64,000 nt of DNA from Acidimicrobiia bacterium (GTDB taxonomy: Bacteria > Actinomycetota > Acidimicrobiia > Spongiisociales > JAENVV01). The stretch spans positions 68,221 through 132,220 of the forward strand of contig JBFGJH010000001.1 in NCBI GenBank assembly GCA_041577335.1. Direction: 5' to 3'. Positions within the stretch are counted from its first letter, which is position 1, and each line of letters begins with the position of its first letter. Positions 10,292 through 48,607 of the stretch are shown here, in pieces. The notes below the pieces were generated by a model that had not been told where the DNA came from, did not search any database, and worked only from the letters and a program-made list of their open reading frames with translations. The position numbers and the translations under genes were made by a program.

Positions 10292-10349
10292 GCTGACTCC
10301 CCGCTGACAAAACTGAACGGTCGGTCAGCTGAGGTCAGGCGCCAGTCAG
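10292..10349. promoter_or_regulatory. Tandem CTGA(C)/GTCAG repeats between divergent genes; candidate OmpR-type binding sites
   Basis: CTGA at 10293, 10304 and 10313; GTCAG at 10324, 10334 and 10345 (9-11 bp period). Confidence 0.5.
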
Positions 10350-10401
10350 GCCGGGTTTCGTACGTTGACGTCATGACCGACCGACCAGAGAAAGGGTCGA
10401 T

Positions 10402-10743
10402 ATGACACGAACCAAGAAACTGATCATCGCCGGAGCCGTGGCAGCCGTAGTGGCCGTACCGGCCGTAGCGGTGTCGGCGCAGACCATCGGGGGCACCGAA
10501 GGTCCCGATGTCGCCATCACCGGCGAAGCGCTCGATCAGGCTTCGGCGGCAGCCCTTGCATATGTTGGTGAAGGGCAGGTGACCGAGACCGAGATCGAGG
10601 ACGAAGAGTCCTACTACGAGGTCGAGGTGACCCGAGCCGACGGAAGCCAAGTCGACGTGCAGCTCGATGAGAGCTTCACCGTGGTTGGATCCGAAGAAGA
10701 CGGGGCAGACGACGCTGCCGACGACGCGGTAACCGGCACCTAG
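10402..10743 (+). CDS. Secreted PepSY-domain protein
   Basis: Signal peptide; GQVTETEIEDEESYYEVEVTRADGSQVDVQLDE is a typical PepSY pattern; divergent from the two-component system. Confidence 0.85.
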   Translation: MTRTKKLIIAGAVAAVVAVPAVAVSAQTIGGTEGPDVAITGEALDQASAAALAYVGEGQVTETEIEDEESYYEVEVTRADGSQVDVQLDESFTVVGSEEDGADDAADDAVTGT

Positions 10744-28246: not shown

Positions 28247-29083
28247 TTAAGGCGAAGCCAGGAGTGCGTTAATCACGGCTGGGAGCGACTCTCGCCAGTG
28301 TGGCAGCCGTCCCAGACCCAGCTCGTCGAGGCGCTCCGACGCCAGCTCGGAGTTGGCAGGGCGGGGTGCTGGGCGAGGGTATTCGTCGGTCGAGCAGGGA
28401 TGGACGCGCAATGGGTCGTAACCGGCGAGGCTGACCGAGTGGCGTGCCAACTCGAACCAGGTCGTGACCCCCTGATTGGTGAGGTGCAGGATGCCGGCGG
28501 CTCCGGCGTCGATGGCTGCCAGGGTTCCGGCGGCTAGGTCGTCGGTGACCGTTGGGCAGCCCCGCTGGTCATCGACGACCCGCAGCTCTTGGGTGGCGAC
28601 CTGCTTGAGCATGGTCGCAACGAAGTTGGGGTGGGTGCCGGACACCACCCATGACGTCCGGATGACCAACGCATCAGGGTTCATGGCGAGCGCGGCACGT
28701 TCTCCGGCAAGCTTGGTTCTCCCATAGGCGCTGCGCGGGTCGGGAACGCTCGACTCCACATACGCGCCAACGGCGTCACCGGAAAACACGTAGTCCGTCG
28801 AGAAGGTCACGAACCGGGCGCTGTTGCTGCCGCACCACGCCGCCATCGCTTCCACGGCTGCCGAGTTGACCATCGCAGCGGTCTCTTCATCCGACTCGGC
28901 TGCATCTACTGCCGTGTAGGCAGCACAATTGATCAACAGATCGGGTCGGGTGGCGTCGAGGAATTTGCCGACCGCCCCCGGCTTGGCAAGATCGAGGTCG
29001 CTCCTCGTCACGAGCCTCGCTTCGGGCAACTGTTTGCCGAAGGCGGTTCCCAGTTGGCCACCCGCCCCAGTGACCAAGATCAC
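28247..29083 (-). CDS. rfbD: dTDP-4-dehydrorhamnose reductase
   Basis: TGAGGQLG, NCAAYTAVD, STDYVF, YGRTK and VDDQRGCPT. Confidence 0.95.
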   Translation of the reverse strand: MILVTGAGGQLGTAFGKQLPEARLVTRSDLDLAKPGAVGKFLDATRPDLLINCAAYTAVDAAESDEETAAMVNSAAVEAMAAWCGSNSARFVTFSTDYVFSGDAVGAYVESSVPDPRSAYGRTKLAGERAALAMNPDALVIRTSWVVSGTHPNFVATMLKQVATQELRVVDDQRGCPTVTDDLAAGTLAAIDAGAAGILHLTNQGVTTWFELARHSVSLAGYDPLRVHPCSTDEYPRPAPRPANSELASERLDELGLGRLPHWRESLPAVINALLASP

Positions 29084-29940
29084 TCGGCCAGGATTCCTTC
29101 GAGATACGATCGGTACGCGGAGCTGGGCATGCCCTGTACGACCTGGCTCAGCTTCTCATGGTCGATGAAGTGCTGCTGCAGGGCAATCTCCTCGAGGCAG
29201 GCGATCTTGATCGATTGGCGATGCTCGATCGTGGCGATGAAGTTGGCGGCCTCGAGCAAACTGTCGTGGGTCCCGCTGTCTAGCCACGCCACCCCCCGAT
29301 CGAGGACCTGGACGTGCAGTGTGCCCTCGGCCAGATACACACGATTCACGTCCGTGATCTCGAGCTCTCCCCTGGCAGACGGGTCGATGGATTTGGCGAC
29401 GTCCACGATCCGATCGTCGTAGACGTAGAGGCCCGGTACGGCGTAGCGAGACTTCGGCTTGGTTGGCTTCTCTTCGATCGAGATCGCGGTGCCCGACTCG
29501 TCGAATTCCACAACGCCATACCGCTCGGGATCACTGACCCGATAGCCGAACACATAGGCGCCGCGACCAAAATCGTCGACCACCTCGTCGAGGCCCAGGC
29601 GTCCGTAGAAGATGTTGTCACCAAGGATCAGGGTGACCGGCTTTCCTTCGATGAACTCCTCGCCGACGAGGAACGCTTGCGCAATCCCCTTGGGCTCAGG
29701 CTGCACGGCGTATCCCAACTCGATGCCCCACTGGCTCCCGTCTCCGAGAAGGTCCTGGAATCGGGGCATGTCGTGGGGCGTGGTGATCAGGAGTATCTCG
29801 CGAATGCCGGCCTGCATGAGCGTGGCCAATGGGTAGTAGATCATCGGCTTGTCGTAGACCGGCTGCAATTGCTTGGAGGCGACTCGGGTGATCGGATCGA
29901 GTCTGCTGCCGGCGCCCCCGGCGAGCACGATGCCTTTCAT
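29080..29940 (-). CDS. rfbA: Glucose-1-phosphate thymidylyltransferase
   Basis: GIVLAGGAGSRL, YDKPMIYY, SARGELEITD and WLDSGT. Confidence 0.96.
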   Translation of the reverse strand: MKGIVLAGGAGSRLDPITRVASKQLQPVYDKPMIYYPLATLMQAGIREILLITTPHDMPRFQDLLGDGSQWGIELGYAVQPEPKGIAQAFLVGEEFIEGKPVTLILGDNIFYGRLGLDEVVDDFGRGAYVFGYRVSDPERYGVVEFDESGTAISIEEKPTKPKSRYAVPGLYVYDDRIVDVAKSIDPSARGELEITDVNRVYLAEGTLHVQVLDRGVAWLDSGTHDSLLEAANFIATIEHRQSIKIACLEEIALQQHFIDHEKLSQVVQGMPSSAYRSYLEGILAE

Positions 29941-29941
29941 A

Positions 29942-30910
29942 TCAGCGGCCCGTTTTGAGGGGTTGCCACCAATCGGACCGGTTCTTGTACCACTCGATGG
30001 TGTCGGCCAGGCGGGTCTCGAGCGTGTGGGCCGGTGCCCAACCGAGCGCGCGGATCTTCGATGAATCGACGGCGTAGCGGCGGTCGTGACCCGGCCGGTC
30101 GGTCACGAACTCGATGAACGATTCGTCACGGCCAGTGGCCGCGAGGAGGCGCCGAGTCAATTCGAGGTTGGTCACCTGGGCATTGGCTCCGATGTTGTAG
30201 ATCTCTCCGAGCTCGCCCTCATCGACGAGTAGGTGGATGGCGGCGCAGTGATCTTCGACGTACAGCCAATCACGCTCGTTGAGTCCGTCGCCATAGACGG
30301 GCACCTTCTTGCCGTCGAGGAGGTTGGTCACGAATAGCGGAATCATCTTCTCGGGGAACTGATATGGCCCGTAATTGTTGGTGCACCGAGTAATGATGAC
30401 CGGGTAGTCAAACGTGATGGCGTAGGACCTCGCCAGTAGGTCCGAACCTGCCTTGGAAGCTGAGTACGGCGACGATGGCTCGAGAGGCGCATCCTCGTCC
30501 GCAAAGCCCTCGGCAATCGACCCATACACCTCGTCGGTGGACACGTGCACGAAACGGTCCACGCCGTGCCGACGGGCCGCATCGACGAGGATGCCCGTGC
30601 CAACCACGTTGGTCTCGAGGAACACCGACGGTCCATCGATTGATCGGTCGACATGACTCTCGGCGGCGAAGTGCACGACAATATCGATGCGGTCCATCAG
30701 CGAGTCCACGAGATCAGCGTTGCGGATATCGCCATGCACGAAAGTGTGGCGGTCAGAACGGTCGAGTTCCTCGACCGTGGACTCAACGCCTGCGTAGGTG
30801 AGGCTGTCAAGGTTCACGACCCTGGCCTCCGGCTCGCGCTCGAGCAACAGCCGAACAAAGTTGGATCCGATGAAGCCGGCGCCACCGGTGACGAGGTATG
30901 TGCGTGCCAT
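29942..30910 (-). CDS. rfbB: dTDP-glucose 4,6-dehydratase
   Basis: TGGAGFIGSNF, HFAAESHVDRS, STDEVYG, YSASK and RPGHDRRY. Confidence 0.96.
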   Translation of the reverse strand: MARTYLVTGGAGFIGSNFVRLLLEREPEARVVNLDSLTYAGVESTVEELDRSDRHTFVHGDIRNADLVDSLMDRIDIVVHFAAESHVDRSIDGPSVFLETNVVGTGILVDAARRHGVDRFVHVSTDEVYGSIAEGFADEDAPLEPSSPYSASKAGSDLLARSYAITFDYPVIITRCTNNYGPYQFPEKMIPLFVTNLLDGKKVPVYGDGLNERDWLYVEDHCAAIHLLVDEGELGEIYNIGANAQVTNLELTRRLLAATGRDESFIEFVTDRPGHDRRYAVDSSKIRALGWAPAHTLETRLADTIEWYKNRSDWWQPLKTGR

Positions 30911-30964
30911 GGTCCCTTCGAGATGCGCGGAGCTGATCATCGTAGAGGACCCACGCCGGAGCCT

Positions 30965-31507
30965 CTAGTCGAACAGCAGCGCTTCAGATGCAGGCGGCGC
31001 GGCCGCGTCCTTGGTTGACAAGACAACCTCAGTCAACGGCCATTCGATGGCCAGGTCTTGGTCGTCATAGCGAATCACTCGATCGCACACCCCGTCGTAG
31101 TAGGCGGACGTCTTGTATACGACGTCCGCGGACTCGCTGAGAACCACGAAGCCGTGACCAAAACCCTCAGGGATCCACAGCTGATGGTGGTTCTCGCTGG
31201 TCAGCTCGACACCCGCCCATTGCATGAATGTCTTCGAGGATCGACGCAGATCAACGGCAACATCCCACACGACGCCGTGCACGACCCGAACGAGCTTGGC
31301 CTGCGGTGAAGGGAGCTGATAGTGGATGCCGCGCAAAACACCTCGGGCCGATCGCGAGTGATTGTCTTGCACAAATCGGACATCCTGCCCGACGATGTCA
31401 CGAAATCGAGCCTGGTTCCAGGCCTCGAAAAAAAAGCCCCGGTCGTCTCCATGGACGGTGGGGCTCACCACTAGCACGGAGCCGATCAGGGTGTCGACGA
31501 TCTTCAT
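30965..31507 (-). CDS. rfbC: dTDP-4-dehydrorhamnose 3,5-epimerase
   Basis: DDRGFFFE, VQDNHSRS, LRGIHYQ and GFGHGF. Confidence 0.95.
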   Translation of the reverse strand: MKIVDTLIGSVLVVSPTVHGDDRGFFFEAWNQARFRDIVGQDVRFVQDNHSRSARGVLRGIHYQLPSPQAKLVRVVHGVVWDVAVDLRRSSKTFMQWAGVELTSENHHQLWIPEGFGHGFVVLSESADVVYKTSAYYDGVCDRVIRYDDQDLAIEWPLTEVVLSTKDAAAPPASEALLFD

Positions 31508-31615
31508 GTCCCAGCCACGGGCGATAGAGGATATCGCGGGCATGTTAGTCTCCACTGTCTCGATGCCGGGCCTCGCCTGTCAGGTTCGCTTCCGGGTCCC
31601 TCACGAAGACTGAAC

Positions 31616-32446
31616 ATGACGCTTCGAACATCCTCTCTGCCCAGTGCGGCCGCGCAATACGCCTCGAATCTCTGGAGGCGGCGCGAATTCGCCTGGTTTC
31701 TCGCTTTGGGAAACCTCAAAGCGCGCAATGCCTCAACCAGCCTCGGGTTGTTCTGGTGGGTGCTCGACCCGATCCTTTTGGGAAGCATCTACGCGCTGGT
31801 ATTCGGTGTGATATTCCAGGTAGACCGCGATACCGAAGCCTACGTCGCGTATTTGATGGCGGGGATGTTCGCCTTTCACTACACCCGCCAGGCGTTGACC
31901 GGGTCGGTGAACAGCATCGTTTCGAACACTCGACTGCTGGCGAATCTCAACTTCCCCCGCCTGGTGCTGCCTATCTCGTCCCTGATGGAATCGGCATTTG
32001 GCTTTGCCGCCTCTCTGGTTGTCTACTACGTCATCATTTTCCCGATCGACGGAGTCCGTCCGACGGCGGCGATCGTGTGGCTGATCCCGGCGTTCATCAT
32101 CCACACCTTCTTCAACCTGGGGCTTGGCTCGATCGCCGCTCGAGTGGCGGTGCCATTTCGCGATGTCAACAATCTCGTGCCGTACTTGCTGCGCTTGTGG
32201 CTCTACATGTCACCCGTTATCTATCCGGTGACGCGTCTCGAAGCCGCCCCGGAGAACCTCGTCCGAATCCTCGAGTTCAACCCCATGTTCCCAATATTGG
32301 CGATGTACCGCCACGCCCTCATGGGCGACCTTCAGCCTCTCACCGCGTCGGATGTGTGGATGTCGACAGCATGGGCAGCAGCGCTAGCTCTCGGCGGCGT
32401 GGCCACCTTCATCGCCGCCGAGGGGCGCATGTCGAGGTATGTATGA
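31616..32446 (+). CDS. wzm: Polysaccharide ABC transporter permease
   Basis: LGLFWWVLDP, FRDVNN, YMSPVIY and NPM; stop overlaps the wzt start (ATGA). Confidence 0.92.
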   Translation: MTLRTSSLPSAAAQYASNLWRRREFAWFLALGNLKARNASTSLGLFWWVLDPILLGSIYALVFGVIFQVDRDTEAYVAYLMAGMFAFHYTRQALTGSVNSIVSNTRLLANLNFPRLVLPISSLMESAFGFAASLVVYYVIIFPIDGVRPTAAIVWLIPAFIIHTFFNLGLGSIAARVAVPFRDVNNLVPYLLRLWLYMSPVIYPVTRLEAAPENLVRILEFNPMFPILAMYRHALMGDLQPLTASDVWMSTAWAAALALGGVATFIAAEGRMSRYV

Positions 32447-34218
32447 CCAATTCGCAACTGGCCATCGTTGCCCGGGGCGTCGGCGTTCGATTTCGGCCGA
32501 CGATCGACCGCAAGCCCACCCTGAGGCGCTCGATCGGCTCGCTTCGACACAAAGAACGAGAGGTCGTTGTCGCCCTGGACGACGTCGACGTAGAGGTCAG
32601 GAAAGGTGAGGCGTTCGGCGTCATCGGCAGAAACGGAGCCGGAAAATCCACCCTCCTCCGCGTTTTTGCCAAGACGCTGAAGCCAGACGAGGGAACCATC
32701 AATGTGTACGGCAAAACCTCTACGCTGCTCAGCTTGGGAGTGGGCTTCAACCCGCAGCTCTCCGGCCGTCGCAACGTGCTCCTTGGGGGCTTGGCTGCCG
32801 GTCTCACGAAAGCCGAAATCGACGCCAAATTCGACGATATCGTCGACTACGCCGAGATTCGCTCTGCCATCGACAGACCGGTGAAGACGTATTCTTCAGG
32901 GATGTTCGCCCGACTGGCATTCTCCGTCGGGATGGCACTCGACCCCAACATCCTCTTGCTCGACGAGGTTCTGGCCGTCGGCGATGAGCAGTTTCAGAAG
33001 AAGAGCAAGGCAGCGATGCGCGAGCTGCTCGACCGCGCCGGGACAATTGTGTTCGTGTCACATTCGCTCGCAGGTGTCGCCGAATTCTGCGATCGGGCGA
33101 TGTGGATGGACAGCGGCCACCCGGTCATCGTCGGCGAGGCCACAGAGGTGGTCGAGCAATACAAGCATTGGGTACGAGCGGGATCACGGAGCCAGGACCT
33201 CGACGCGATCCGAGCTGGCACACTGCCGGCCGTGGCCGCACAGATGCCGATCGCCGACACATCAACTCCCCCTGCGCCGGTACAACCGTGGGCGGGTTAT
33301 GAGCACTCCGGCTTCAGCCATCTCCTCGTGAAGGATCCGGCAGTCACCATCGAGTCGGGTCAGTTTCTCCGAACGATCGACCCGAGCGAACGGTATGAGG
33401 TCAAAGAAACCGGCGGACGTCCGCCGCAGCCTCCACTCGCGGATCCGGCGACGATCAAGGTGTTCCATGGAGTGAACAAATCGGCGAGTGGCAGCTTCAG
33501 TCTCACCATCGAGGAAGGCCTCCGGCATGCCGGAGAAGAACGGCGGATCATCAACCGGTTCTCACTCTTCAACAAATACTCACTCGACGAGCTGCTCGAC
33601 ATGCTCAACGCAGAGGGATCGACTGCCGAGTTCCTTGCCGACCACGGATCGTATGGGACGGCGAAGCGGCTCAACCGGCCGGTGACCTATTTGACCGTGA
33701 TCCGGGAGCCGGTGATCCGTGCCGTCTCGGTATACAGCTGGCTCGCCAAACACTCGCCCAAGATGATCGGAGACCGGGACTTGGTGAAATGGGGAAGCGA
33801 CGCCCACAAGACATTCGGCACGGCCATCCAATTCTTGGCACCCGATCCAAAGCACCGAAGGGAGGTAGCCAACACCCATACCGCCGCTGAGATCGTCGAC
33901 CGCGCCACCAAGGTCCTGGAGACGGAGTTCTCTCTCGTGGCGCCGTCCGACCTCCTCGACGAAGCCCTCTTTGTCACAGCACACGAGATGCAGATCCCTT
34001 CGCTGACACCTTGGAAGCGTGACGATCGCCAGCCCGATCGACCACCGCTCGCCGACCTCGATCCTGGCGCCGTCGACGCGTTATCCGAGATCCTCAGCGC
34101 AGAGATCGACTTCTATAACCTTCACCGAGCCCGCTTCCTCTCGCTGTGGGAGGGCTATCGGTTCGGCACGGAGTTCGAGCAGTACCATCAAAGAGCCCGA
34201 CAGGAGCATAGAACATGA
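32443..34218 (+). CDS. wzt: Polysaccharide ABC transporter ATPase with C-terminal sulfotransferase-fold domain
   Basis: GRNGAGKST, YSSGM and LLDEVLAVGD in the first ~245 aa; later VFHGVNKSASGS and LTVIREPVIRAVSVY, which resemble the 5'-PSB and 3'-PB motifs. Confidence 0.85.
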   Translation: MTNSQLAIVARGVGVRFRPTIDRKPTLRRSIGSLRHKEREVVVALDDVDVEVRKGEAFGVIGRNGAGKSTLLRVFAKTLKPDEGTINVYGKTSTLLSLGVGFNPQLSGRRNVLLGGLAAGLTKAEIDAKFDDIVDYAEIRSAIDRPVKTYSSGMFARLAFSVGMALDPNILLLDEVLAVGDEQFQKKSKAAMRELLDRAGTIVFVSHSLAGVAEFCDRAMWMDSGHPVIVGEATEVVEQYKHWVRAGSRSQDLDAIRAGTLPAVAAQMPIADTSTPPAPVQPWAGYEHSGFSHLLVKDPAVTIESGQFLRTIDPSERYEVKETGGRPPQPPLADPATIKVFHGVNKSASGSFSLTIEEGLRHAGEERRIINRFSLFNKYSLDELLDMLNAEGSTAEFLADHGSYGTAKRLNRPVTYLTVIREPVIRAVSVYSWLAKHSPKMIGDRDLVKWGSDAHKTFGTAIQFLAPDPKHRREVANTHTAAEIVDRATKVLETEFSLVAPSDLLDEALFVTAHEMQIPSLTPWKRDDRQPDRPPLADLDPGAVDALSEILSAEIDFYNLHRARFLSLWEGYRFGTEFEQYHQRARQEHRT

Positions 34219-34237
34219 CCGTGAGGAGACCCCGCCC

Positions 34238-34777
34238 ATGGTGATCTGGGTCACAGGAATGTCGGCCGCCGGGAAAACGACGTTGTGCCGAGCGCTGTAC
34301 GACATGATCAAACCAAGCATGGCCAATCTCGTTCTTCTCGAAGGCGAGACGTTACGCGGCGTCTTCGGCGATGACCTCGGATACGAGATTCACGACCGTG
34401 TTGAAGGAGTCCACAGGCTGCGCGGCCTTGCCGACACCCTGACAAGACAGGACATCGGAATCATCGCCGCTTCGGTGTACCTGGACGACGAGTTGTCCGA
34501 CTGGAACCGCGCCAACCTCCCTGGGTATTTCGAGGTCTTCTTGGACGCATCACTGGAGACGGTGCAGAGTCGCGACCCCAGGGGCCTCTATGCCAAGGCT
34601 GTCGCGGGGACCATGTCGAATGTGGTCGGATTTGACATTCCGCTCGGCCAGCTGAGCTCACCGGACATGATCGTCGATGTAGACCATGCCCCCCCTGCTA
34701 TCGAGACAGCTCTCAAGATTGTCGCCGAGATTCCTGAGATTGCCGGCCGCCTCGCTGAGATCCCCCGTCCGCAGTGA
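34238..34777 (+). CDS. APS-kinase-family kinase, divergent (Cj1415-like)
   Basis: IWVTGMSAAGKTT and RDPRGLY, but it lacks the (F/P)I(S/A)P and FTGI..PYE motifs; has WNRANL..YFEV and NVVGFDIP. Confidence 0.8.
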   Translation: MVIWVTGMSAAGKTTLCRALYDMIKPSMANLVLLEGETLRGVFGDDLGYEIHDRVEGVHRLRGLADTLTRQDIGIIAASVYLDDELSDWNRANLPGYFEVFLDASLETVQSRDPRGLYAKAVAGTMSNVVGFDIPLGQLSSPDMIVDVDHAPPAIETALKIVAEIPEIAGRLAEIPRPQ

Positions 34778-36309
34778 TCGTCGTCATCAACCTCGGCCTG
34801 AAAAGCGTGCGATCAATCGTCTTCTCGTATGACGGCATGGTCCAGGCTCAGGCGTCAGAGCCCATCCACACCTACGTGAGCAACGAGTCGGTCGAACAGG
34901 ATCCCCGTGAGTGGGAACGCCTCACGAAGGATGTGGTGAGGAAGACTATGACCGAGCTCGGGGATGCGGCTCAGTCGATCGAGTACGTGGCAGTCACCAC
35001 GTCGGCCTCATGCCTTGTCGCGGTCGACGGGCACGGGACGCCAACTCGCAACTCGGTGCTGGTCTCCGACACCCGCTCCACCGAGCAGGCCCGACTCCTT
35101 GCCAACACCTTCGAGTTCCGGTCGGTCCTGGCCGACACAGGCCTGAGCCCATCGCCCGACCTGATGCTGCCGAAGATGATGTGGATCAAGCGCCATGAGC
35201 CTGAGGTGCTAAAGGCGACGAAACATTTCATGAACGTTGGTGACTATCTGGTGGCTTTGCTCACCGGTCGGTACGTCACCGACCCCAACAACGCGTCGAA
35301 GTTCCACCATGCCGCTGGCATCGGCTACCCCAACAGCCTCCTCGACAGCCTCGGCCTCGACCCCAAAGGCCTCCCCGCAGTGGAGAACGCCGGGACCTCG
35401 GTCGGCAAGGTCCTCCCCGAAATCGCCACCGAACTCGGCCTTCCCACCTCAACCGAAGTCATTCTGGCGACCTACGACGCCCTCGCAGCGGTCACAGGCA
35501 CCGGCGCATTCGAAGTAGGAGAAGCAGTCGACGTTTCCGGCACCGTAACCAGTTTTCGCGTCGTCACCGATCATCATGTGCATGACCCAGAGGGTCGCGT
35601 GTATGTCAATCCGCACCTCGACGGGACGTGGTTGATCGGCGGGTCCAACAACCTCGGCGGAGGCATCGTCGAGTGGCTCAAGCAGTTGTTCTTTGCCGGT
35701 GATGATGATCCCTATGGAGCGATCGAGGCGGAGGCGGCTTCCGAGCAGCCGTGCCCCGGTGGCCTCATTTTCTTGCCGTATCTCCTCGGCGAGCGCGCAC
35801 CGAAATGGGACCCTGACTGCCGAGGCGTCTTCTTTGGGCTCAACAGGGCCCACGGCCGACCGCAGATGGTGCGCGCCGTCCTCGAGAGCATTGGATTCTC
35901 GGTGCGCGACATCGCCACCGTGTTGAAGAGCTTCATGGTCGAGCCCCATGTGGTCAATGTTTCCGGCGGGCTCGCTCGAATCGATCTCGCCAACCAGATC
36001 AAAGCCGACATCCTGGGTGTTCCGGTTCAGCGCCTTTCCAATTTCGAGACGACATCTATCGGCGCCGCCCTCATCGCCCTCAGCGCCACCAATGTGTTCA
36101 GCAGTCCTCGCGAGGGGTTCTCGAGCTTCTGCCGCATCGACAGGGTCTTCGAGCCCAATCCCGCCGTACACATGGTGTACGACGAGTATTTCGAGCTGTA
36201 CCGATCCACCTACGATGCCCTCCGTCCGGTATTCGAACAGCGCAAACGAATCATCGGCCGCCTCAGCCAGGTCGGCATCTCCGAGCTCACGATCGCCGAG
36301 AACCTGTGA
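34774..36309 (+). CDS. FGGY-family carbohydrate kinase
   Basis: EQDPREW, SDTRS, FLPYLLGERAPKWD, RGVFFGL, VSGGLA and KADILG. Confidence 0.88.
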   Translation: MIVVINLGLKSVRSIVFSYDGMVQAQASEPIHTYVSNESVEQDPREWERLTKDVVRKTMTELGDAAQSIEYVAVTTSASCLVAVDGHGTPTRNSVLVSDTRSTEQARLLANTFEFRSVLADTGLSPSPDLMLPKMMWIKRHEPEVLKATKHFMNVGDYLVALLTGRYVTDPNNASKFHHAAGIGYPNSLLDSLGLDPKGLPAVENAGTSVGKVLPEIATELGLPTSTEVILATYDALAAVTGTGAFEVGEAVDVSGTVTSFRVVTDHHVHDPEGRVYVNPHLDGTWLIGGSNNLGGGIVEWLKQLFFAGDDDPYGAIEAEAASEQPCPGGLIFLPYLLGERAPKWDPDCRGVFFGLNRAHGRPQMVRAVLESIGFSVRDIATVLKSFMVEPHVVNVSGGLARIDLANQIKADILGVPVQRLSNFETTSIGAALIALSATNVFSSPREGFSSFCRIDRVFEPNPAVHMVYDEYFELYRSTYDALRPVFEQRKRIIGRLSQVGISELTIAENL

Positions 36310-37448
36310 GCGCCGTGGGTAGTGCCTGGCGTATCGACTCACCGACCAGGATCCGCTTTGGTGTGGGAGCCCTGGACACACTTGCCGAGGAAGCCCCCCA
36401 ATTTGGCGAAAGGGCGGCGGTGATAGCCGGCAACTCTGCTCGCCAGAACGGCACTGTGGATCGATGCCTTCGCCTCGTGCCGGGTGCCATTGTCTTTCCC
36501 GATCCCATCGGCGCTGATCCGGCAGTTGCCCAAGTCGACGGTCTCACCCGTTTCGTCGCTGATCGCGAGGCGACATGTCTCGTGGCGATTGGCGGTGGCA
36601 GTGTCCTCGATGCGGCCAAAGCAGCCTCGGCGGTCGTTTCCGGGGGCGGTTCGACTGCCGACTATCTCAGCGGCGCCAAAGCTGTCCCCGCCGAGACCCT
36701 TCCGGTGATTGCCGTGCCGACGACGGCGGGCACGGGAGCCGAGCTATCCAAGGGAGCCATCATCACCTGGCCGGAGCACCGGATCAAGCATGGAATCCGT
36801 GGTGAGGGATTAGTCCCACGCGTCGCCATCGTCGATCCATCACTGGCGGCTACAGCCCCTGAGTCGGTGACTCGCTTCTCGGGATTCGACGCATTCGCCC
36901 ATGCCGTGGAGACGTTCATCTCGCATGCTGCCAATCCCCTCACCGCCATACTCTCCCAACATGCCGTCCGTAGCATTGTTTCCGCGCTCCCGCGTGCGCT
37001 CCGTGATCCGCATGACATCGAGGCGCGCACGAGCATGGCGCTGTCAGCCATGCTCATGGGATACAACCTCGCCAACGCCTCCACGTGCCTACCCCACCGG
37101 CTCCAGTATCCGCTGGGTTTCGTCACGTCTACGCCGCACGGGCTCGGGCTGGCAGCGCTCTTCCCAGGATGGGTGGCGGTGACGGCGTCCGCTGCGCCCG
37201 AGAAGTGGGCACAGGTCGTTCGATGGATGGGATTCGATGAGACCGAGGTCGATCCCGCGCTAGCCATCGGGCGGTTCCTCGCTGACGTAGACGCGACCTC
37301 CGACCTCGAAGCGCTGGGCGCCAACCGATCCGATATCGGCACGCTTGTCGGCTCAGTCCGTGGCAACCTCGCCAACGATCCCTGGTGGAACGATGGGCGA
37401 GACATCGGAGACATCTACCGGGCAGCGCTCCAAGGAGCGACCCTGTGA
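36306..37448 (+). CDS. Iron-containing alcohol dehydrogenase
   Basis: GGGSVLDAAK, PTTAGTGAE, DAFAHAVE, PHRLQY and PHGL. Confidence 0.9.
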   Translation: MSAVGSAWRIDSPTRIRFGVGALDTLAEEAPQFGERAAVIAGNSARQNGTVDRCLRLVPGAIVFPDPIGADPAVAQVDGLTRFVADREATCLVAIGGGSVLDAAKAASAVVSGGGSTADYLSGAKAVPAETLPVIAVPTTAGTGAELSKGAIITWPEHRIKHGIRGEGLVPRVAIVDPSLAATAPESVTRFSGFDAFAHAVETFISHAANPLTAILSQHAVRSIVSALPRALRDPHDIEARTSMALSAMLMGYNLANASTCLPHRLQYPLGFVTSTPHGLGLAALFPGWVAVTASAAPEKWAQVVRWMGFDETEVDPALAIGRFLADVDATSDLEALGANRSDIGTLVGSVRGNLANDPWWNDGRDIGDIYRAALQGATL

Positions 37449-38173
37449 ACGCGTTGATCCTGGCTGCCGGTCGAGGAAGAAGGATCGAAGAGCTCACGCA
37501 AGGCATGCCGAAGTGTTTTCTCGAAGTGGGCGGCAAACGCATCATCGAGCACCAGATCGACGCCTGCAGGAACGCCCGGATCGACGACATCGTGATCGTC
37601 ACCGGCTGGCGGGCGAGCGAAGTCGAGGCTGCTCTGAACTCTCACAGGGCCACCTTCATTCGCAACCCGTTCTTTGACCGCACGAATGTGCTCTCATCGG
37701 TCTGGTTTGCCGCGCCGCGGCTTCGCGAAGGCTTCTACTTCATGCACGCCGACACATTGTTCGACCCTTCGATCCTCGTCGACCTACGGGAGCACCCGGG
37801 CGACCTGGTCTTGTGCGTTGAGACCAAATCGGTGTCAGACGAAGAGATGAAGGTTCGGCTGGTCGATGGGACGATCCAAGAGATCAACAAGACCATGGAC
37901 CTCGCCGACGCCCAAGGTGAATTCACGGGTGTTCTCAAAGTCAGCCCCGCCCTCGCGCCCACGGTGGTCGACACCATCGAACACTTCATCGAAATCGAGA
38001 ATCGGGTCGAGGACTTCTTCGAGGTTGTCATCCAAGATCTGATCGACCGTGGCATCGGCGCCGAGATTCTGGACATAGGCGACCGCATATCGATTGAAAT
38101 CGACTTCCCTGAGGACTACGAGGAGGCGGTTGCCCGATTGGGTCAGTCGGCCGGATGGGGCGACCATGGCTGA
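37445..38173 (+). CDS. LicC-family (phosphocholine-type) cytidylyltransferase
   Basis: ILAAGRGRR...PKC, HADTLFD, EEMKV, GEFTG and EIDFPED; GTGA overlap with the upstream gene. Confidence 0.85.
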   Translation: MNALILAAGRGRRIEELTQGMPKCFLEVGGKRIIEHQIDACRNARIDDIVIVTGWRASEVEAALNSHRATFIRNPFFDRTNVLSSVWFAAPRLREGFYFMHADTLFDPSILVDLREHPGDLVLCVETKSVSDEEMKVRLVDGTIQEINKTMDLADAQGEFTGVLKVSPALAPTVVDTIEHFIEIENRVEDFFEVVIQDLIDRGIGAEILDIGDRISIEIDFPEDYEEAVARLGQSAGWGDHG

Positions 38174-39017
38174 GACTGCCGTTCGCCTCATCGAGCGTGC
38201 TGCGCAAGCCGGACAGCGAGCAATCCCCTGTTTTGACATCGCCGGGGGCAACCCTGACATCGCCATGGCTATCGGCGAAACCCTCACGAGACGGGGCGGA
38301 TTTGCATTGCTTTCTTCCACACCCGACTCCATCAGCTCGTATCACGGGATGGAACGATTCGCCGAGACGGTGGACTGGGTTGCACGGGAATGCGAGCACC
38401 GGGTATCGCCTCATCTCGACCACGCGCGGGCGCTCGAGCCGATCCAAGAAGCTCTGCGGTGTGGGGTTCGGTCGATCATGTTTGATGGGTCGTTTCTGCC
38501 GGTTGAAGAAAACGCAGCTGCCACGAGCTCGGTGGTTGCCGTGGCGCACGGGCATGGTGCCTCTGTCGAAGCCGAACTAGGTGTGATAGGCGGCAAGGAG
38601 GATGAAATCGTGGCAGAGGGCGGAGAGCTACCTTCACTGGAGGAGTGCCGGTCATTCGTCGAACGATGCCGGCCCGACCTTTTCGCTCCGGCAATCGGCA
38701 CCCAGCATGGTCCTGTCAAAGAGCAACCTGCCATTTCGTGGGAGCTTGTCGAAGGCCTCAAATCGCACACCCCAACCGTCGAGCTCGTGCTGCACGGTAC
38801 AACCGGCCTCGAGACGGCCAGCGTCAAGAGGGCCCTCGACGCCGGATTCTCGAAGGTGAACTACGCAACTGCGATCAGGATGGCATTCAACGCCGGTGTG
38901 CAGGCGTCGCTGAACGGAGCCTCGGTCCGTACCAAGCCTCAGACTCACCTCGCCGCAGGGCGCTCGCATGTTGCCGCTACCGTGGAAGCCATCATGGACG
39001 CGCTGGCAGAACTATGA
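38166..39017 (+). CDS. Class II fructose/tagatose-bisphosphate aldolase family protein
   Basis: HLDH, MFDGS, VEAELGVIGG, AIGTQHG, LVLHG and KVNYAT. Confidence 0.9.
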   Translation: MAETAVRLIERAAQAGQRAIPCFDIAGGNPDIAMAIGETLTRRGGFALLSSTPDSISSYHGMERFAETVDWVARECEHRVSPHLDHARALEPIQEALRCGVRSIMFDGSFLPVEENAAATSSVVAVAHGHGASVEAELGVIGGKEDEIVAEGGELPSLEECRSFVERCRPDLFAPAIGTQHGPVKEQPAISWELVEGLKSHTPTVELVLHGTTGLETASVKRALDAGFSKVNYATAIRMAFNAGVQASLNGASVRTKPQTHLAAGRSHVAATVEAIMDALAEL

Positions 39018-40768
39018 CCACCGCAGCAGATCCCACGGCACCGCTTCTCATTCTCGGCAGTCACCGCTCGGGCACGAGCGCTGTTGCCGGCATGTTCAGC
39101 GCACTCGGCCTCAGCATGGGCGAGTTGCTGCCGCCCGGGCCAGACAATCCGCGCGGCTACTACGAGACAGCCGAAATCCTCAGAGCCCACGAAGACCTCC
39201 TTCGCCAGCTCGAACATGACTGGGTGTGGCCACCTCATCGCTTCTCCGGGAATGCGGTCGACTCGACTCGGCTCGCCAACGCCATCGAGTCCATCGAAAC
39301 CGATCGACCCTGGGGCGTGAAGGATCCGCGGAGCATGTTTTTGCTCCCCGCCTGGACCAATATCGTCCCGCGCTTTCGAATGGTGGGTGTCGTCCGAGAT
39401 CCTGCCTCGATTGCGAAGTCGCTGCTCTCGCGCAACAACTTCTCCCCAGAACAAGCGCACGTCATCGTGGACAGATACGTGAGACGCCTCCACGATCTTT
39501 GGAAGTATCTCGATTTTCCGATCGTTGACTTTGACGCCGACCCAGCCACGACGGCCGAGCGTGTGCGGGCGATCGCGGCATTTCATGGGCTGGAGGGCGA
39601 CGCCCCCGGCCAGGTGTTCGAGTCGAGCCTTCGCCATCATGGGGGACACGATGGCAGCGACTTCGAGCACGTCGCCGAACTCAAAGCAGCAGCATCGGCG
39701 ACAATCGACTCTCTGGGTGATTTCTCGCGCGAGCAGGTCCACGAAGCCCTGGACCGCATCACCGAGCAGGCCGCCGGCCCCAACATCGCCATGGGGCCAG
39801 GATTGGACGTCCGCTCGCGCGAGCTTCGTGACCGGGCGGCGATTCGTCAGCCGGGCTCCTTCCAGACCCTGGTACTCCACCCTTCTCATTCAACCTCCGC
39901 AATGCCCGTGGCTGACGTCGATCCCGAAATCTCCGTTCTTGCCAAGAACGGTCCGCCCGACGGCCGCTTCGGCATTGTTGTGGGTGCGGGCGTGCTGGAG
40001 GAGACGAGCAACCTGCGAGAACTCTTGGCCGAGTTGGATTCCGTGACCTCGGTTCCTGCCACCGTGGCACTTGACGGTCTGCTCGTCACCGCCCAGCCGG
40101 TACCTGACACATCATGGTTTGAAGGTGCCGCCGTTGCCTCGCATCTGTCTGGCGAGCCCTACCACCATCACGTGGCCGAAATCTACGCCGCCGTTTCCTC
40201 CACTCAATTCATCGTCGAGAGCATCTCGCCTTTGCGGCGGGAGGGCGGCCGCAGCGTCGTGATGCTGACAAAAGGCCACGGCACGACGATGTCTGCGGAC
40301 TTTTTTGAAGGCCTCTCCGCCATCGATGGGCTGCACACGCGGATCGCACAGTTGGAAGGCGATCTGGCCCATCGCGACAACCTCATTCACGATCTGACCT
40401 TGGAGCGCGACGCAGCGGCAGCAGCGTCGACCGCCGTCGAGCGCCTCGTCCATGAGGTCAGCGTATTGGACGCCGAACGCCAGGACCTGAGCTTCAAGCT
40501 GCACCGCGCAGAAATCGAGGTACGGGCGCGGCGCTCCGCGTATGAGAACCTGCTTCGCGATGACTCCGGGTTACGCCACTGGAACCGCGATCTCGTCCAA
40601 GAGGTTGGCGCCCAAGGAAAGGCGATCGCCAAGCTCGAGAAAGACCTGGCCTCCACGAAGAAGTCTCTCGAAGCACTGCGAGCAAAGGTGGACAAGGTGA
40701 AGCGCCTCGTGCCTTCCTTCGTGCGACCCGTGGGAAGCGCAATACTGGGAAGAAGCTCCAAGCAGTGA
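39014..40768 (+). CDS. Sulfotransferase-family protein with C-terminal coiled coil
   Basis: LILGSHRSGTS, NPRGYYE, WGVKDPR and VVRDPASIAKSL; heptad-rich region at about 40310-40700. Confidence 0.8.
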   Translation: MTTAADPTAPLLILGSHRSGTSAVAGMFSALGLSMGELLPPGPDNPRGYYETAEILRAHEDLLRQLEHDWVWPPHRFSGNAVDSTRLANAIESIETDRPWGVKDPRSMFLLPAWTNIVPRFRMVGVVRDPASIAKSLLSRNNFSPEQAHVIVDRYVRRLHDLWKYLDFPIVDFDADPATTAERVRAIAAFHGLEGDAPGQVFESSLRHHGGHDGSDFEHVAELKAAASATIDSLGDFSREQVHEALDRITEQAAGPNIAMGPGLDVRSRELRDRAAIRQPGSFQTLVLHPSHSTSAMPVADVDPEISVLAKNGPPDGRFGIVVGAGVLEETSNLRELLAELDSVTSVPATVALDGLLVTAQPVPDTSWFEGAAVASHLSGEPYHHHVAEIYAAVSSTQFIVESISPLRREGGRSVVMLTKGHGTTMSADFFEGLSAIDGLHTRIAQLEGDLAHRDNLIHDLTLERDAAAAASTAVERLVHEVSVLDAERQDLSFKLHRAEIEVRARRSAYENLLRDDSGLRHWNRDLVQEVGAQGKAIAKLEKDLASTKKSLEALRAKVDKVKRLVPSFVRPVGSAILGRSSKQ

Positions 40769-42957
40769 CCAGCGCGCTGCCGGCCGTCGATGTCATCATT
40801 CCCATTTACAACGGCTATGACGTGGTCGGCAACTGCATCGAATCTGTCTTGGCCAATACCCATGGGCCGGCGAGCGAAATCGGCGTGATCCTCGCAGACG
40901 ACGCCAGTCCCGATCCGCGCATCGGACCGCTCCTCGAAGAGTTCGCCGCTCGTGATGATCGAGTTCAGGTCCACTCGCGAACGGTCAACCTCGGGTTTCC
41001 CGAGAATTGCAATGAATCGATGCGTGCCTCGAGACGGGACATCGTGATTCTCAACAGCGACACGGAGGTCCCGCCCGGCTGGCTGACCCGTTTGTGCACG
41101 AAGGCGGCCAGCTCGGCGCGGGTGGGATCCGTCACGCCGCTCACGAACAACGGCACCGTGTGCAGCGTCCCGGAGTGGCTCAAGAACAACCCGTTCGGTT
41201 CGCTCGACACGAATGCTCTCGATGAAATAGCCCAGGCGACGGCCACCGGCTTGTGGATCGAGCTGCCCACGGGAGTTGGTTTCTGCCAATACTTCACTCG
41301 GACTGCGCTTGATACCTGTGGCTATTTCGACGGCGCAGTGTTTGGCAAGGGATACGGCGAGGAGAACGATCTCTGCCTCCGTATCCGTCATGAGGGGCTT
41401 GTCAATCTGCTCGCCGACGATGTGTTTGTCTCACACATCGGAGGAGTCTCGTTCTCTGAGGCGGGGACCTCCCGCCTAGACGAGAACCTCGCCAAAATCG
41501 GGCGACTGTGGCCCGACTACCACGCGCTGATCCAGGAATTCATCGCCGATAACCCATTGGCGGGCGTTCAGGCGAGATTCGGGTTGGAAATGTTGCGCCG
41601 AACGCCGCGAAGTCCGGGCAAACCTCGCGTTCTGTACATGCTTCACAATGCCATCTGGGGCACCGTGATCGGCGGTACGGAGTTTCATGTCCAAGACCTG
41701 GTCGAGGCGCTCAGGGGCGAGATCGAGCCGATCATCCTGTCGCCTCGCCACGGAACACGACCAATTCTGCAATGGGATGACAGAGGACACGTCCGATCGT
41801 TTCCTATCGCCTATTCGTTCGACAGTGAGTGGGTCAGACAGCTTCTGAGCAGCGGCATCGACCTAGTCCACATCCACCACTGGATCGACTTTCCCGCCGA
41901 TGCCCTCTCCGAAGTGCTGGCCGTGTGCGCAGCCGTCGGCATCCCAACAGTCGTATCGCTTCATGACTACTACGCAGCCTGTCCAGGAATCCAGCTGCTG
42001 GACGCTCGAACCAAGCAACCGTGTGTTTCTCTCGAGGGAACCGATCGGTGCGATGGATGCGAAATCAAGGCGGGCCGCACCGCACGGATCGACGTCGAAG
42101 GGTGGCGCCGGGAACATCGCGCCGCGCTCGCCCAGGCGAGCTTGATCGTCTCTCCTTCGGAGGCGGCGCGCCACGTGCTTCTCCAAGGTCTCAGGGATGC
42201 GGGACCGCAACTCGACGTTCATGTCGAACCCCACGCATTGCCTACTAGTTGGCCGTCCCCGACCCCGAAGGAGCCCGCCGAGCCCTATCGGATTTCCGTC
42301 ATTGGCTACGGCGGCGCCCACAAAGGAGACCGGGTCTTGATCGACCTCATTGCGCACCTCGACGGTCTCGAGCTCGAGTGGCATTTCTACGGCCGCAAGA
42401 AGCTTCGCGACCTTCCCGACGAACCGCCCTACTTCTTCCATGGGACCTACGAACGGGATGCGCTGCACGACTGGCTGGTTGAAGACGACTTTGCCCTACT
42501 TGTCTCTACCTGGCCCGAAACCTTCTCGTACACACTCTCCGAAGCCTGGTCGGCAGGTCTTCCCGTGTTCGCGACTGCTCACGGCGCCTTACAGGAACGC
42601 GTGAGCGAGGCAGGGGCCGGCATGTTGCTCAGTGACGACCCCGCAGCGGCTGCCACCGAGATCAGAGCCGCGCTAGCGGACCCTGATCGGATTCTGGCGA
42701 TGCAGCGAGCTACCAAGTACGCTGCCCAGGCGCTGCGCACCCTCCCGGAGATGGCCACGGCCTATCTCGGGCATTACCGGGCGCTCCTCGCCGCCGCGTC
42801 ACCCGCTGCAATCGTCCCTTCGGCTCACGAGCCGGGCCTCGACGAGGTCGAAAACTTGATGGGATCCTTCCGCTCGCCGCTGCCAGCCGTCGATGTGTCC
42901 CGGGAGGAGCTGGCGACGCCAGTCGTCCATCAAGCCGGGGGGCGCCCACCGAGATGA
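40765..42957 (+). CDS. Bifunctional GT2 + GT4 glycosyltransferase
   Basis: IIPIYNG, DDASPD, LNSDTEV and GYGEENDL, then GGTEFH, SLHDYY and WPETFSYTLSEAW. Confidence 0.9.
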   Translation: MTSALPAVDVIIPIYNGYDVVGNCIESVLANTHGPASEIGVILADDASPDPRIGPLLEEFAARDDRVQVHSRTVNLGFPENCNESMRASRRDIVILNSDTEVPPGWLTRLCTKAASSARVGSVTPLTNNGTVCSVPEWLKNNPFGSLDTNALDEIAQATATGLWIELPTGVGFCQYFTRTALDTCGYFDGAVFGKGYGEENDLCLRIRHEGLVNLLADDVFVSHIGGVSFSEAGTSRLDENLAKIGRLWPDYHALIQEFIADNPLAGVQARFGLEMLRRTPRSPGKPRVLYMLHNAIWGTVIGGTEFHVQDLVEALRGEIEPIILSPRHGTRPILQWDDRGHVRSFPIAYSFDSEWVRQLLSSGIDLVHIHHWIDFPADALSEVLAVCAAVGIPTVVSLHDYYAACPGIQLLDARTKQPCVSLEGTDRCDGCEIKAGRTARIDVEGWRREHRAALAQASLIVSPSEAARHVLLQGLRDAGPQLDVHVEPHALPTSWPSPTPKEPAEPYRISVIGYGGAHKGDRVLIDLIAHLDGLELEWHFYGRKKLRDLPDEPPYFFHGTYERDALHDWLVEDDFALLVSTWPETFSYTLSEAWSAGLPVFATAHGALQERVSEAGAGMLLSDDPAAAATEIRAALADPDRILAMQRATKYAAQALRTLPEMATAYLGHYRALLAAASPAAIVPSAHEPGLDEVENLMGSFRSPLPAVDVSREELATPVVHQAGGRPPR

Positions 42958-48600: not shown

Positions 48601-48607
48601 GGACCAT

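Follow-up and report, generated by a model that had tools for sequence, protein, structure and literature searches.

A predicted CDP-donor module and a divergent APS-kinase-like protein in a putative surface-glycan operon of an Acidimicrobiia bacterium

The operon and its four-gene module

The operon described here lies in a 64,000-nucleotide stretch of contig JBFGJH010000001.1 (positions 68,221 to 132,220; hereafter the window, in whose numbering coordinates are given) from an Acidimicrobiia bacterium whose assembly, GCA_041577335.1, comprises 3.38 Mb in 128 contigs and is 90.75% complete. A sequence-only reading of the window, which has a G+C content of 0.60-0.67, had singled out five translationally coupled genes between wzt and the genes for a sulfotransferase and a glycosyltransferase (GT). 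It proposed that they form one cassette, in which a kinase resembling adenosine 5'-phosphosulfate (APS) kinase 3'-phosphorylates a donor activated with cytidine diphosphate (CDP). All five genes are present as described on the forward strand, within a longer operon of nine genes that runs from wzm to a two-domain GT2+GT4 gene (31616-42957, +). Two parts of this operon are the subject of this analysis: a module of four genes predicted to make a CDP-linked small molecule, and the APS-kinase-like gene that stands ahead of it.

The first two genes, all nine being on the same strand, are wzm for an ATP-binding cassette (ABC) permease of the ABC-2 type (31616-32446; PF01061, 37.8 bits) and wzt for an ABC ATPase (32443-34218; PF00005, 73.4 bits; NF050108, 190.6 bits, under cut-off). 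They are followed by the gene for an APS-kinase-like P-loop kinase of the PRK05541 type (34238-34777; 179 residues; PF01583, 91.8 bits). The four module genes encode an FGGY carbohydrate kinase resembling xylulokinase (34774-36309; PF00370, 125 bits; PF02782, 121 bits), an iron-type alcohol dehydrogenase (Fe-ADH) of group III (36306-37448; PF00465, 132 bits; PF25137, 118 bits), a LicC/PntC-like nucleotidylyltransferase that is probably a cytidylyltransferase (37445-38173; PF12804 (NTP_transf_3), 65.5 bits), and a class II (zinc) ketose-bisphosphate aldolase of the FBA/TBA family (38166-39017; PF01116, 202 bits). A protein with a sulfotransferase-like N-terminal domain and a long C-terminal region comes next (39014-40768; PF13469, 28.1 bits against a cut-off of 27, residues 10-163), and the operon closes with a GT2 + GT4/GT1 protein (40765-42957; PF00535, 63.7 bits; PF13439, 48.9 bits; PF13692, 46.5 bits). 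Six of the eight junctions are 4-base ATGA/GTGA overlaps (wzm/wzt, kinase/FGGY, FGGY/Fe-ADH, Fe-ADH/cytidylyltransferase, aldolase/sulfotransferase-like and sulfotransferase-like/GT), the kinase overlapping the first module gene by GTGA, and the cytidylyltransferase/aldolase junction is an overlap of 8 bases. The sole junction without overlap is that from wzt to the kinase, a 19-base spacer containing GGAGA.

This arrangement is not an assembly chimera, because contigs from an independent study span the junctions without a difference. Logan contigs from runs of that study match the wzt-kinase-FGGY and transferase-aldolase-sulfotransferase junctions with no differing letter: record 3 of run X2 covers 34034-36235, which takes in the end of wzt, the entire kinase gene and most of the FGGY gene, record 7 of the same run covers 37448-39158, and records 9 and 10 of run X4 bridge both kinase junctions. 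In all, the region 33600-39400 was seen in runs X2-X5 (study P2), X6 (study P3) and X7 (study P4), none of these studies being the likely source, with no differences in the X2 and X4 contigs and 8 differences over 823 bases of one X6 contig. Labels of the runs that carry the sequence vary (soil, marine, sediment), and none of the runs listed as carrying it is an RNA run.

None of the module genes can be named by orthology, since all four proteins fall under every NCBIfam equivalog cut-off. The FGGY kinase reaches 261 bits on the XylB model TIGR01312 (cut-off 380.25), is under the cut-offs of all 12 FGGY models, and has its best matches in the Protein Data Bank (PDB) in 3gbt and 2itm. The Fe-ADH likewise scores below cut-off on the models for ErcA (196 bits), GbsB (186 bits) and PsrA (181 bits). 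In the aldolase, the PF01116 match spans profile positions 8-272 of 277, the score on TIGR01859 is 181 bits (cut-off 343), and the translation contains HLDH, GTQHG and LHGTTG, which we take to be its zinc ligands. The sequence-only reading had called the nucleotidylyltransferase LicC-type, a call that its two best PDB matches bear out: a PntC fusion (6pd1, E = 3e-11) and LicC (1jyk, E = 1.6e-9). With its counterpart in L109, a phosphonate locus, it shares 37% identity.

The same four genes occur in G1146, a genome of the same order that is 97% complete, where they lie on one strand in the window's order and encode orthologues with identities of 62% (FGGY), 50% (Fe-ADH), 58% (cytidylyltransferase) and 50% (aldolase). 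The FGGY and Fe-ADH genes stand at the start of contig C154, and the transferase and aldolase genes at the end of C286. The genes are contiguous, because these contig ends share an exact 127-base overlap and the Fe-ADH frame continues across the joint. G1146 gave no match to the window's kinase at E <= 1e-5, so that it lacks APS-kinase domains altogether. The cassette is thus a four-gene unit with an add-on and not a conserved set of five, and orthologues of the FGGY kinase, Fe-ADH and aldolase adjoin the kinase in none of the 80 genome loci and 80 metagenome loci collected around its relatives. The neighbours of the module in G1146, which include GT2 genes, a Wzy_C-type protein, a UDP-N-acetylglucosamine 2-epimerase and SpoIID, indicate by their families that there too it sits in a cell-envelope glycan locus.

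At E <= 1e-40 the FGGY family has 1112 members (best 63% identity), and at E <= 1e-20 the transferase family has 328 (best 62%). The matches of the two families have ten longest-contig sizes in common (44736, 5918, 5816, 5333, 18980, 51093, 10424, 27014, 46474 and 4528), which we take to reflect FGGY and transferase genes located together on metagenomic contigs; none of these ten sizes was found among 120 of 182 kinase homologues. One further size, 60244, is common to an FGGY protein (P0225) and a kinase (P0043). The FGGY orthologue was found in G000 and G1146 only in a class sample of 401 genomes and in G1146 alone among 133 genomes of its family; the best non-self match in a phylum sample of 401 genomes, the window's own included, was 32% identical, and 401 Chloroflexota genomes gave none at E <= 1e-100. 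Such a rare and patchy distribution suggests horizontal spread. Because the FGGY-Fe-ADH-transferase-aldolase set forms an operon of its own in a genome without an APS-kinase homologue, it is, as judged from gene content, a portable and self-sufficient module. Its donor would need no 3'-phosphorylation, since the module occurs without the kinase in G1146 and, by size matching, on the ten metagenomic contigs.

The module probably makes a cytidine-activated small phospho-alcohol, here called CDP-X. The substrate of the transferase is most likely such a phospho-alcohol and not a sugar-1-phosphate, since its closest solved relatives are PntC and LicC and it resembles the L109 enzyme. In phosphonate loci, an Fe-ADH reduces an aldehyde to an alcohol, which is then joined to cytidine monophosphate (CMP). 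By analogy, a phosphorylated aldehyde or ketose could come from the aldolase and FGGY kinase and be reduced by the Fe-ADH to a hydroxyalkyl- or polyol-phosphate, which the transferase would join to CMP from cytidine triphosphate (CTP), yielding CDP-X. The most plausible candidates for X are C3-C5 polyol phosphates (glycerol, tetritol or pentitol phosphate). One option is that the bisphosphate aldolase acts on C6/C7 bisphosphates to give glyceraldehyde 3-phosphate or erythrose 4-phosphate, which would be reduced to glycerol phosphate or erythritol 4-phosphate. Alternatively, dihydroxyacetone phosphate could be condensed with small aldehydes and the products reduced to pentitol or tetritol phosphates. 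In the literature searched, we found no paper on CDP-erythritol, -mannitol, -xylitol or -threitol, and a full-text search returned none that combined three or more of these four: FGGY, iron-containing alcohol dehydrogenase, cytidylyltransferase and class II aldolase.

A phosphonate was considered for X and rejected. The window has no gene for phosphoenolpyruvate (PEP) mutase or phosphonopyruvate decarboxylase, so the substrate must be a phosphate ester, and the best PF13714 match of the genome reaches 29.9 bits on the PEP-mutase equivalog (cut-off 319.55).

The APS-kinase-like protein and its relatives

The kinase scores 131.2 bits (protein scan) and 132.5 bits (genome scan) on NF004041/PRK05541, above the cut-off of 127, and 94.6 bits on the equivalog for canonical APS kinase (CysC), TIGR00455, under the cut-off of 138.7. 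The genome's own CysC domain, fused to ATP sulfurylase in Sat-CysC (45060-46790, +; PF14306, PF01747 and PF01583, the last with 202 bits), reaches 90.9 bits on NF004041, under its cut-off. The kinase is therefore no canonical CysC, as the sequence-only reading had argued from the motifs of the two proteins, and the motif contrast itself was found again: LLEGE-T and NVVGFDIP in the kinase, LLDGD and EFTGISDPYE in the fused domain. More broadly, the kinase has EGE-T, LGY and VVGF where 57-58 canonical rows and the fused domain have DGD, LGF and FTGI. Close relatives were found nowhere in the collections searched: the best of 182 matches in a search of 5.8 billion clusters share 45-55% identity, the best of 6604 matches among 1.84 billion representatives share 41-47%, and in 60 related genomes, drawn from the same genus, family and order (the unpublished genomes G025 and G036 being counted in the tally only) identity does not exceed 37%. 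On these comparisons the kinase is an orphan lineage without a close relative.

Its active site is unusual as well. In an alignment of 171 rows the kinase is alone in lacking Asp at position 35 (100% D in the other 170), has Glu at position 37 against Asp in 92-100% of rows and Arg at position 115 against the lid Lys in 96-100%, and deviates also at G10, W136 and P139, while the P-loop consensus is retained. In the corresponding tree its terminal branch is 1.06 long, against a median of 0.27. In place of F at what we take, from the APS-kinase literature, to be the first adenine-stacking position it carries Y, and in place of FT it has VV. A survey of 270 family proteins gave 238 with DGD, 4 with DGE, 3 with EGE, 7 with neither form and 18 in which the P-loop was not found by pattern. 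Outside the window, EGE occurs only in P0361 and P0051, and P0361, the nearest relative, combines it with the same lid Lys-to-Arg change. Because EGE and Arg recur together in P0361, and EGE in P0051, we read the site as a rare but working variant and not as the outcome of simple decay.

To place the kinase, neighbours in the 80 genome and 80 metagenome loci were labelled by tblastn from neighbours that had been identified by Pfam in sample loci, and trees were built by quick IQ-TREE or FastTree searches, the first with 171 rows that include all 169 loci with a kinase match, three duplicates of the window's own genome being excluded. A PRK05541-type clade of 113 rows, the window's kinase among them, stands apart from canonical CysC with a Shimodaira-Hasegawa-like approximate likelihood-ratio test (SH-aLRT) support of 100 and a stem length of 1.09, and with support of 99-100 in smaller trees. 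The patterns W-N-R, Y-x-E and VVGxDI are conserved throughout this clade, which includes kinases inside complete phosphoramidate cassettes of the Cj1415-18 type. On this evidence, membership of the kinase in the clade is firm.

Within the clade, two subclades differ in gene context. Subclade (b), with 75 rows, is of the Cj1415 type, a label given by gene context and by one source's names for three matches, the trees being built without the Cj1415 sequence. A glutamine kinase and/or a C26 hydrolase lies within 8 kb in 43 of the 75 loci, which shows the phosphoramidate cassette to be widespread, and a cytidylyltransferase in 38; PEP mutase or decarboxylase is present in 9/75 and ATP sulfurylase in 0/75. 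Subclade (a) has 37 rows besides the window, with ATP sulfurylase within 3 kb in 32 of them, an adjoining pyruvate kinase in 21 and cytidylyltransferase in 3. Where at least 3 kb of sequence is available on both sides, all eight (a) loci have ATP sulfurylase, and (b) loci have the transferase in 26/39 and glutamine kinase or hydrolase in 25/39.

The window's kinase falls in subclade (a) in the 171-row tree (SH-aLRT 85), is sister to 66 other (a) rows with larger sampling (support 96 and 95), and is placed with (a) by FastTree (91 and 91). When P0361 is added, the two form a pair (96) nested in (a) (98), and the group around them (90) also holds L102 and L003, which are sulfurylase-linked, P0051, L092, L095 and L098. 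Among 11 positions that discriminate (a) from (b), the kinase is (a)-like at seven, among them Y81, found in 100% of (a), resembles neither at four and is (b)-like at none. Its placement thus leans towards the sulfurylase-linked side. The sequence-only reading had held that the motif pattern of the kinase fits the Cj1415 clade; this stands for the wider PRK05541-type clade and its shared motif patterns, while four trees favour the sister subclade. In the window itself, the nearest sulfurylase starts 10.3 kb downstream of the kinase, in a separate operon and fused to its own kinase domain, and the LicC-like transferase lies 2.7 kb downstream of the kinase in the same operon.

Several other gene arrangements came to light among the family's loci. 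A recurrent row, mostly metagenomic, consists of a PRK05541-type kinase, an unfused ATP sulfurylase and a pyruvate kinase (L091, L093, L094, L096, L102-L108, L112, L113, L121, L123-L129, L154 and L001; kinase at about 10001-10500 in these 20-kb loci). A link of pyruvate kinase to the synthesis of 3'-phosphoadenosine 5'-phosphosulfate (PAPS) is unusual. Near these rows are sulfotransferases, sulfatase-family genes, NeuB genes and one TagF-like gene (L102:4052-5998). In phosphonate-type loci, PEP mutase (often nucleotidyltransferase-fused), decarboxylase and Fe-ADH genes accompany a PRK05541-type kinase (L095:2008-6943, L098:27-3420, L146:190-8753, L109:6189-10504 and L019:2182-6879), and ATP sulfurylase is on none of their contigs. 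L095 and L146 also encode a protein of 516-524 residues with a weak cupin match, and L095 and L098 a sulfatase-family protein. Such gene contents suggest that the kinase of these loci acts on a CMP-linked phosphonate; in the literature searched we found no description of a PRK05541-type kinase in phosphonate loci, and the phosphonate papers among the matches listed make no mention of adenylylsulfate kinase. At L016:9884-12853, one frame of 989 residues joins an APS-kinase domain to glutamine-kinase-type PPDK_N and PEP-utilizer domains, an apparent fusion of Cj1415-like and Cj1418-like steps that, by spacing, may also be present in L017, L024, L025, L027 and L036.

The sulfotransferase-like protein and the neighbouring genes

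The sulfotransferase-like gene directly follows the donor genes and precedes that for the polymerising GT. Its product continues for about 400 residues after the recognised domain, with weak SMC-type coiled-coil matches at residues 428-564, and gave no match among PDB sequences. Homologues are present in 8/61 genomes including the window's own, that is, in seven of the 60 relatives, the one in G002 being 34% identical and part of a 1540-residue frame. The APS-kinase matches of these seven genomes are fused Sat-type domains or members of a canonical-like clade (L082-L090) only, which weakens the earlier suggestion that a sulfotransferase-fold protein uses a 3'-phospho-CDP donor. In one genus among the relatives, a Sat-type frame that has its own kinase domain is directly adjoined by the gene for a free-standing, canonical-like APS kinase about 210 residues long (G002:C12:53713-54778, G008:C138:3469-4555, G013:C12:2462-3512 and G018-G021; loci L088-L090). 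In the tree, kinases of this free-standing kind make up a distinct clade (SH-aLRT 99) that is separate from the PRK05541-type clade, and the gene is absent from the window's genome.

Next to the kinase gene on its other side, Wzt carries a C-terminal extension of about 340 residues (33190-34218) that has no sequence match in Pfam, NCBIfam or the PDB and no homologue in the 60 relatives; a single-sequence AF2 model was unusable, with a predicted local distance difference test (pLDDT) of 37. BLASTP gave no match between the extension and the sulfotransferase-like protein, and a phmmer search with the sulfotransferase-like domain and the extension against 3490 open reading frames (ORFs) of the kinase loci gave no real relatives, its only weak match being in L003. 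An impression by eye of a sulfotransferase 3'-phosphate-binding motif in the extension proved unsupported and was set aside.

Downstream of the operon, beyond a convergent transketolase gene, the Sat-CysC fusion is followed by a CitMHS/sulfate-symporter-type transporter (46834-48600, +; PF03600/PF00939) and a CysQ-like protein of the inositol-monophosphatase family (48584-49381, +; PF00459). The CysC domain fused to Sat retains the P-loop, DGD, KGLY and FTGISDPYE and is a competent-looking canonical APS kinase. The transketolase gene was rejected as an accessory gene of the operon, being the genome's only copy. Upstream, on the strand opposite to the operon, are rmlD (28247-29083, -; RmlD_sub_bind, 295 bits), rmlA (29080-29940, -; NTP_transferase, 231 bits), rmlB (29942-30940, -; GDP_Man_Dehyd/Epimerase, 263/226 bits) and rmlC (30965-31555, -; dTDP_sugar_isom, 224 bits), with further GT genes near them.

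No homologue of glutamine kinase or C26 hydrolase (three tblastn queries each), PEP mutase, phosphonopyruvate decarboxylase, pyruvate kinase or sulfatase-like proteins was found in the 64-kb window at E <= 1e-3, in agreement with the earlier statement that the Cj1417 and Cj1418 steps are absent. Farther downstream, a 568-residue frame (54321-56027, -) contains a lipoate-protein ligase A/B domain (residues 26-216) and lipoyl-synthase N-terminal and radical-SAM domains (residues 276-488), and would represent a LipB-LipA fusion, unless the ORF lister read through two genes.

The role of the kinase and comparison with known systems

Our preferred reading, which we put forward tentatively, is that the nine genes form an operon for an ABC-exported, rhamnose-containing surface glycan, in which a new CDP-X module is joined by an accessory PAPS-making kinase. 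The operon would be a mosaic of the portable four-gene module and an orphan PRK05541-type kinase placed ahead of it. By 3'-phosphorylating APS, the kinase would provide PAPS to the operon's sulfotransferase-like protein, alongside the genes for Sat-CysC, the sulfate transporter and the CysQ-like protein 6-10 kb downstream, and the glycan would bear both sulfate and phosphodiester-linked X. We favour a role in PAPS synthesis because the kinase groups with subclade (a), a PAPS module is present in the window, the operon has a sulfotransferase-like gene, and the four-gene module is independent of the kinase in G1146.

Several observations weigh against this reading. A second APS kinase looks redundant beside the fused canonical domain, and it is with the CDP-X genes that the kinase gene is coupled, the Sat operon being 10.3 kb off and past the convergent transketolase gene. 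Across the family, the presence of a LicC-like transferase close to the kinase accompanies chemistry of the CDP/CMP type, such a transferase being found in 38 of 75 loci of (b) against 3 of 37 of (a). Grouping of the kinase and P0361 with subclade (b) was not rejected by the approximately unbiased (AU) test (p-AU 0.568), and the (b)-constrained tree was 3.49 log-likelihood units (lnL) better than the quick free tree. The (a) kinases of L092, L095 and L098, which are among the closest neighbours of the window's kinase with a known gene context, adjoin Fe-ADH and sulfatase-like genes on contigs without ATP sulfurylase. Neither the window locus nor that of G1146 yielded a TagF, LicD, CDP-alcohol-phosphotransferase or Stealth domain that could transfer plain CDP-X. 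Finally, the argument for co-location from contig sizes is indirect and rests on 120 of the 182 kinase matches.

Some of these points favour a different role, in which the kinase 3'-phosphorylates the module's CDP-X to a PAPS-like donor, 3'-phospho-CDP-X, from which X-phosphate is moved to the glycan by the operon's sulfotransferase-fold protein or another, unrecognised one; G1146 would then hold a kinase-free variant of the same donor pathway with a different transferase. We regard this as rather unlikely, with several points in its favour nonetheless: the overlap of the kinase with the first module gene, the canonical APS-kinase domain already present in the Sat operon, the lack of a recognised classical CDP-alcohol transferase in the locus and the AU test are all in keeping with it. 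So is the position of the kinase in the PRK05541-type clade, which both the tree (SH-aLRT 100) and the NF004041 score support and whose members repeatedly stand beside LicC/PntC-like transferases, with the glutamine kinase, C26 hydrolase and transferase counts of (b) given above. Phosphonate-type loci with PEP mutase, decarboxylase, Fe-ADH, transferase and kinase occur in (b) (L019, L029, L109 and L146) and also in (a) (L092, L095 and L098, with no ATP sulfurylase on their contigs), and Fe-ADH, transferase and kinase recur jointly in three backgrounds. In L114, which belongs to (a), a sulfotransferase, the kinase and a transferase lie in a row on an 8.6-kb contig without ATP sulfurylase, the one row of this kind among the loci collected. 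However, the module occurs without such a kinase in G1146 and, by size matching, on ten metagenomic contigs, and the five-gene combination was seen in the window only. The trees and discriminating positions favour the sulfurylase-linked subclade, the window contains a full PAPS module, and the relatives with homologues of the sulfotransferase-like protein have APS kinases of canonical type only.

It is improbable, in our view, that the kinase is a relic or a regulatory pseudo-enzyme, or acts on another nucleotide, with no part in either PAPS or CDP-X synthesis, having perhaps arrived with a horizontally acquired wzt-kinase segment. The deviations at D35, D37, K115, G10, W136 and P139, the long terminal branch, the lack of any relative above 55% identity in 5.8 billion clusters or above 47% among 1.84 billion representatives, and the adjoining Wzt extension, likewise without homologues in the 60 relatives, could all be explained in this way. 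Yet the gene has an unbroken, translationally coupled frame, its product retains the P-loop consensus, runs of another study carry the identical sequence, and the substitutions (two of D to E, one of K to R) leave charge unaltered and recur jointly in P0361, with EGE also in P0051. A last alternative leaves the module without a new product: the FGGY kinase, aldolase and Fe-ADH would be a catabolic trio of the fuculose/rhamnulose type that recycles sugar, with the nucleotidyltransferase serving an unrelated sugar-1-phosphate. The families do parallel FucK/RhaB, aldolase and FucO of established pathways, lactaldehyde reductase models give the Fe-ADH 173 bits, and the locus makes dTDP-rhamnose. 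We nevertheless consider it very unlikely, given that the aldolase is in the bisphosphate family PF01116 and not in the FucA/RhaD family, that the four genes including the transferase are together in G1146 with glycan loci in both genomes, that FGGY and transferase co-occur at ten metagenomic contig sizes, and that the solved proteins closest to the transferase, PntC and LicC, act on phospho-alcohols or phosphonates.

If the kinase makes PAPS, as we prefer to think, the locus would be an ordinary one for a sulfated, phosphodiester-decorated glycan with one new precursor pathway. That pathway, the four-gene module, would be a new route to an activated phospho-alcohol for surface glycans, of which we found no description in the literature searched. 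The PRK05541-type family, in which Cj1415 is to our knowledge the only characterised member, appears to be functionally split into ATP-sulfurylase-linked, phosphoramidate-linked and phosphonate-linked kinases. The window and G1146, which share the donor module but not the kinase, are a natural pair for testing 3'-phosphorylation. Were 3'-phospho-CDP-X the product, it would add another chemical class to such donors, the first being the phosphoramidate cofactor of Campylobacter, and, together with the phosphonate loci, would make 3'-phosphorylated CDP/CMP donors general for glycan decoration with phospho-alcohols, phosphonates and phosphoramidates.

The closest parallel to the gene combination is the O-methyl-phosphoramidate donor of Campylobacter jejuni. 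According to PMC11800397, this donor is made by the glutamine kinase Cj1418, the cytidylyltransferase Cj1416, the hydrolase Cj1417 and the kinase Cj1415, whose product is CDP-phosphoramidate 3'-phosphate. Both systems have a PRK05541-type APS-kinase fold and a LicC-like cytidylyltransferase in one glycan operon, and the window's kinase shares a strongly supported clade with those of complete cassettes. In contrast to C. jejuni, the window lacks the glutamine kinase and C26 hydrolase and has the FGGY kinase, Fe-ADH and aldolase instead, and its kinase branches within the sister subclade or at its base, as compared with relatives assigned by context and not with the Cj1415 sequence itself. Among the matches listed in a literature search on Cj1421/Cj1422, the word sulfotransferase had 0 occurrences. 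With PAPS synthesis and sulfation the operon shares the APS_kinase fold, a subclade mostly beside ATP sulfurylase (32/37), and Sat-CysC, transporter, CysQ-like and sulfotransferase-like genes within the same 16 kb, whereas the kinase scores under the CysC cut-off, has EGE for DGD and does not adjoin a sulfurylase.

Donors of the CDP-polyol or CDP-alcohol kind include CDP-glycerol (TagD), CDP-ribitol (TarI/TarJ), CDP-2-glycerol (Gtp1-3), CDP-arabinitol (AbpA/AbpB) and CDP-choline (LicA/LicC). We know of no such pathway with a set of FGGY kinase, group III Fe-ADH and class II bisphosphate aldolase. A route to CDP-threonine, FtaB-D, is described in a preprint (bioRxiv 10.64898/2026.02.12.704994). 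The module resembles these pathways in that a reductase and a kinase would make a phospho-alcohol that is activated with CTP, in its placement among glycan genes and in its LicC-like transferase family; it differs in its enzyme set, as compared by description and not by sequence, and in that no TagF/LicD-type transferase was recognised.

In phosphonate pathways, PEP mutase, phosphonopyruvate decarboxylase, an Fe-ADH acting as phosphonoacetaldehyde reductase and a PntC/Fom1-type cytidylyltransferase lead to CMP-linked 2-hydroxyethyl- or aminoethylphosphonate. The window has neither PEP mutase nor decarboxylase, but the Fe-ADH, PntC-like transferase and PRK05541-type kinase recur in such loci (L019, L029, L095, L098, L109 and L146), and its transferase is 37% identical to that of L109 with PntC as its best solved match. 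Lastly, chain terminators of the WbdD type, from ABC-dependent O-antigen systems, combine a modifying domain with a coiled-coil ruler. The catalytic domain here is sulfotransferase-like and not a kinase or methyltransferase, and the likeness is one of genes alone: a modifying domain with a long coiled-coil-like region, encoded beside wzm and wzt, and a Wzt with an extra C-terminal domain.

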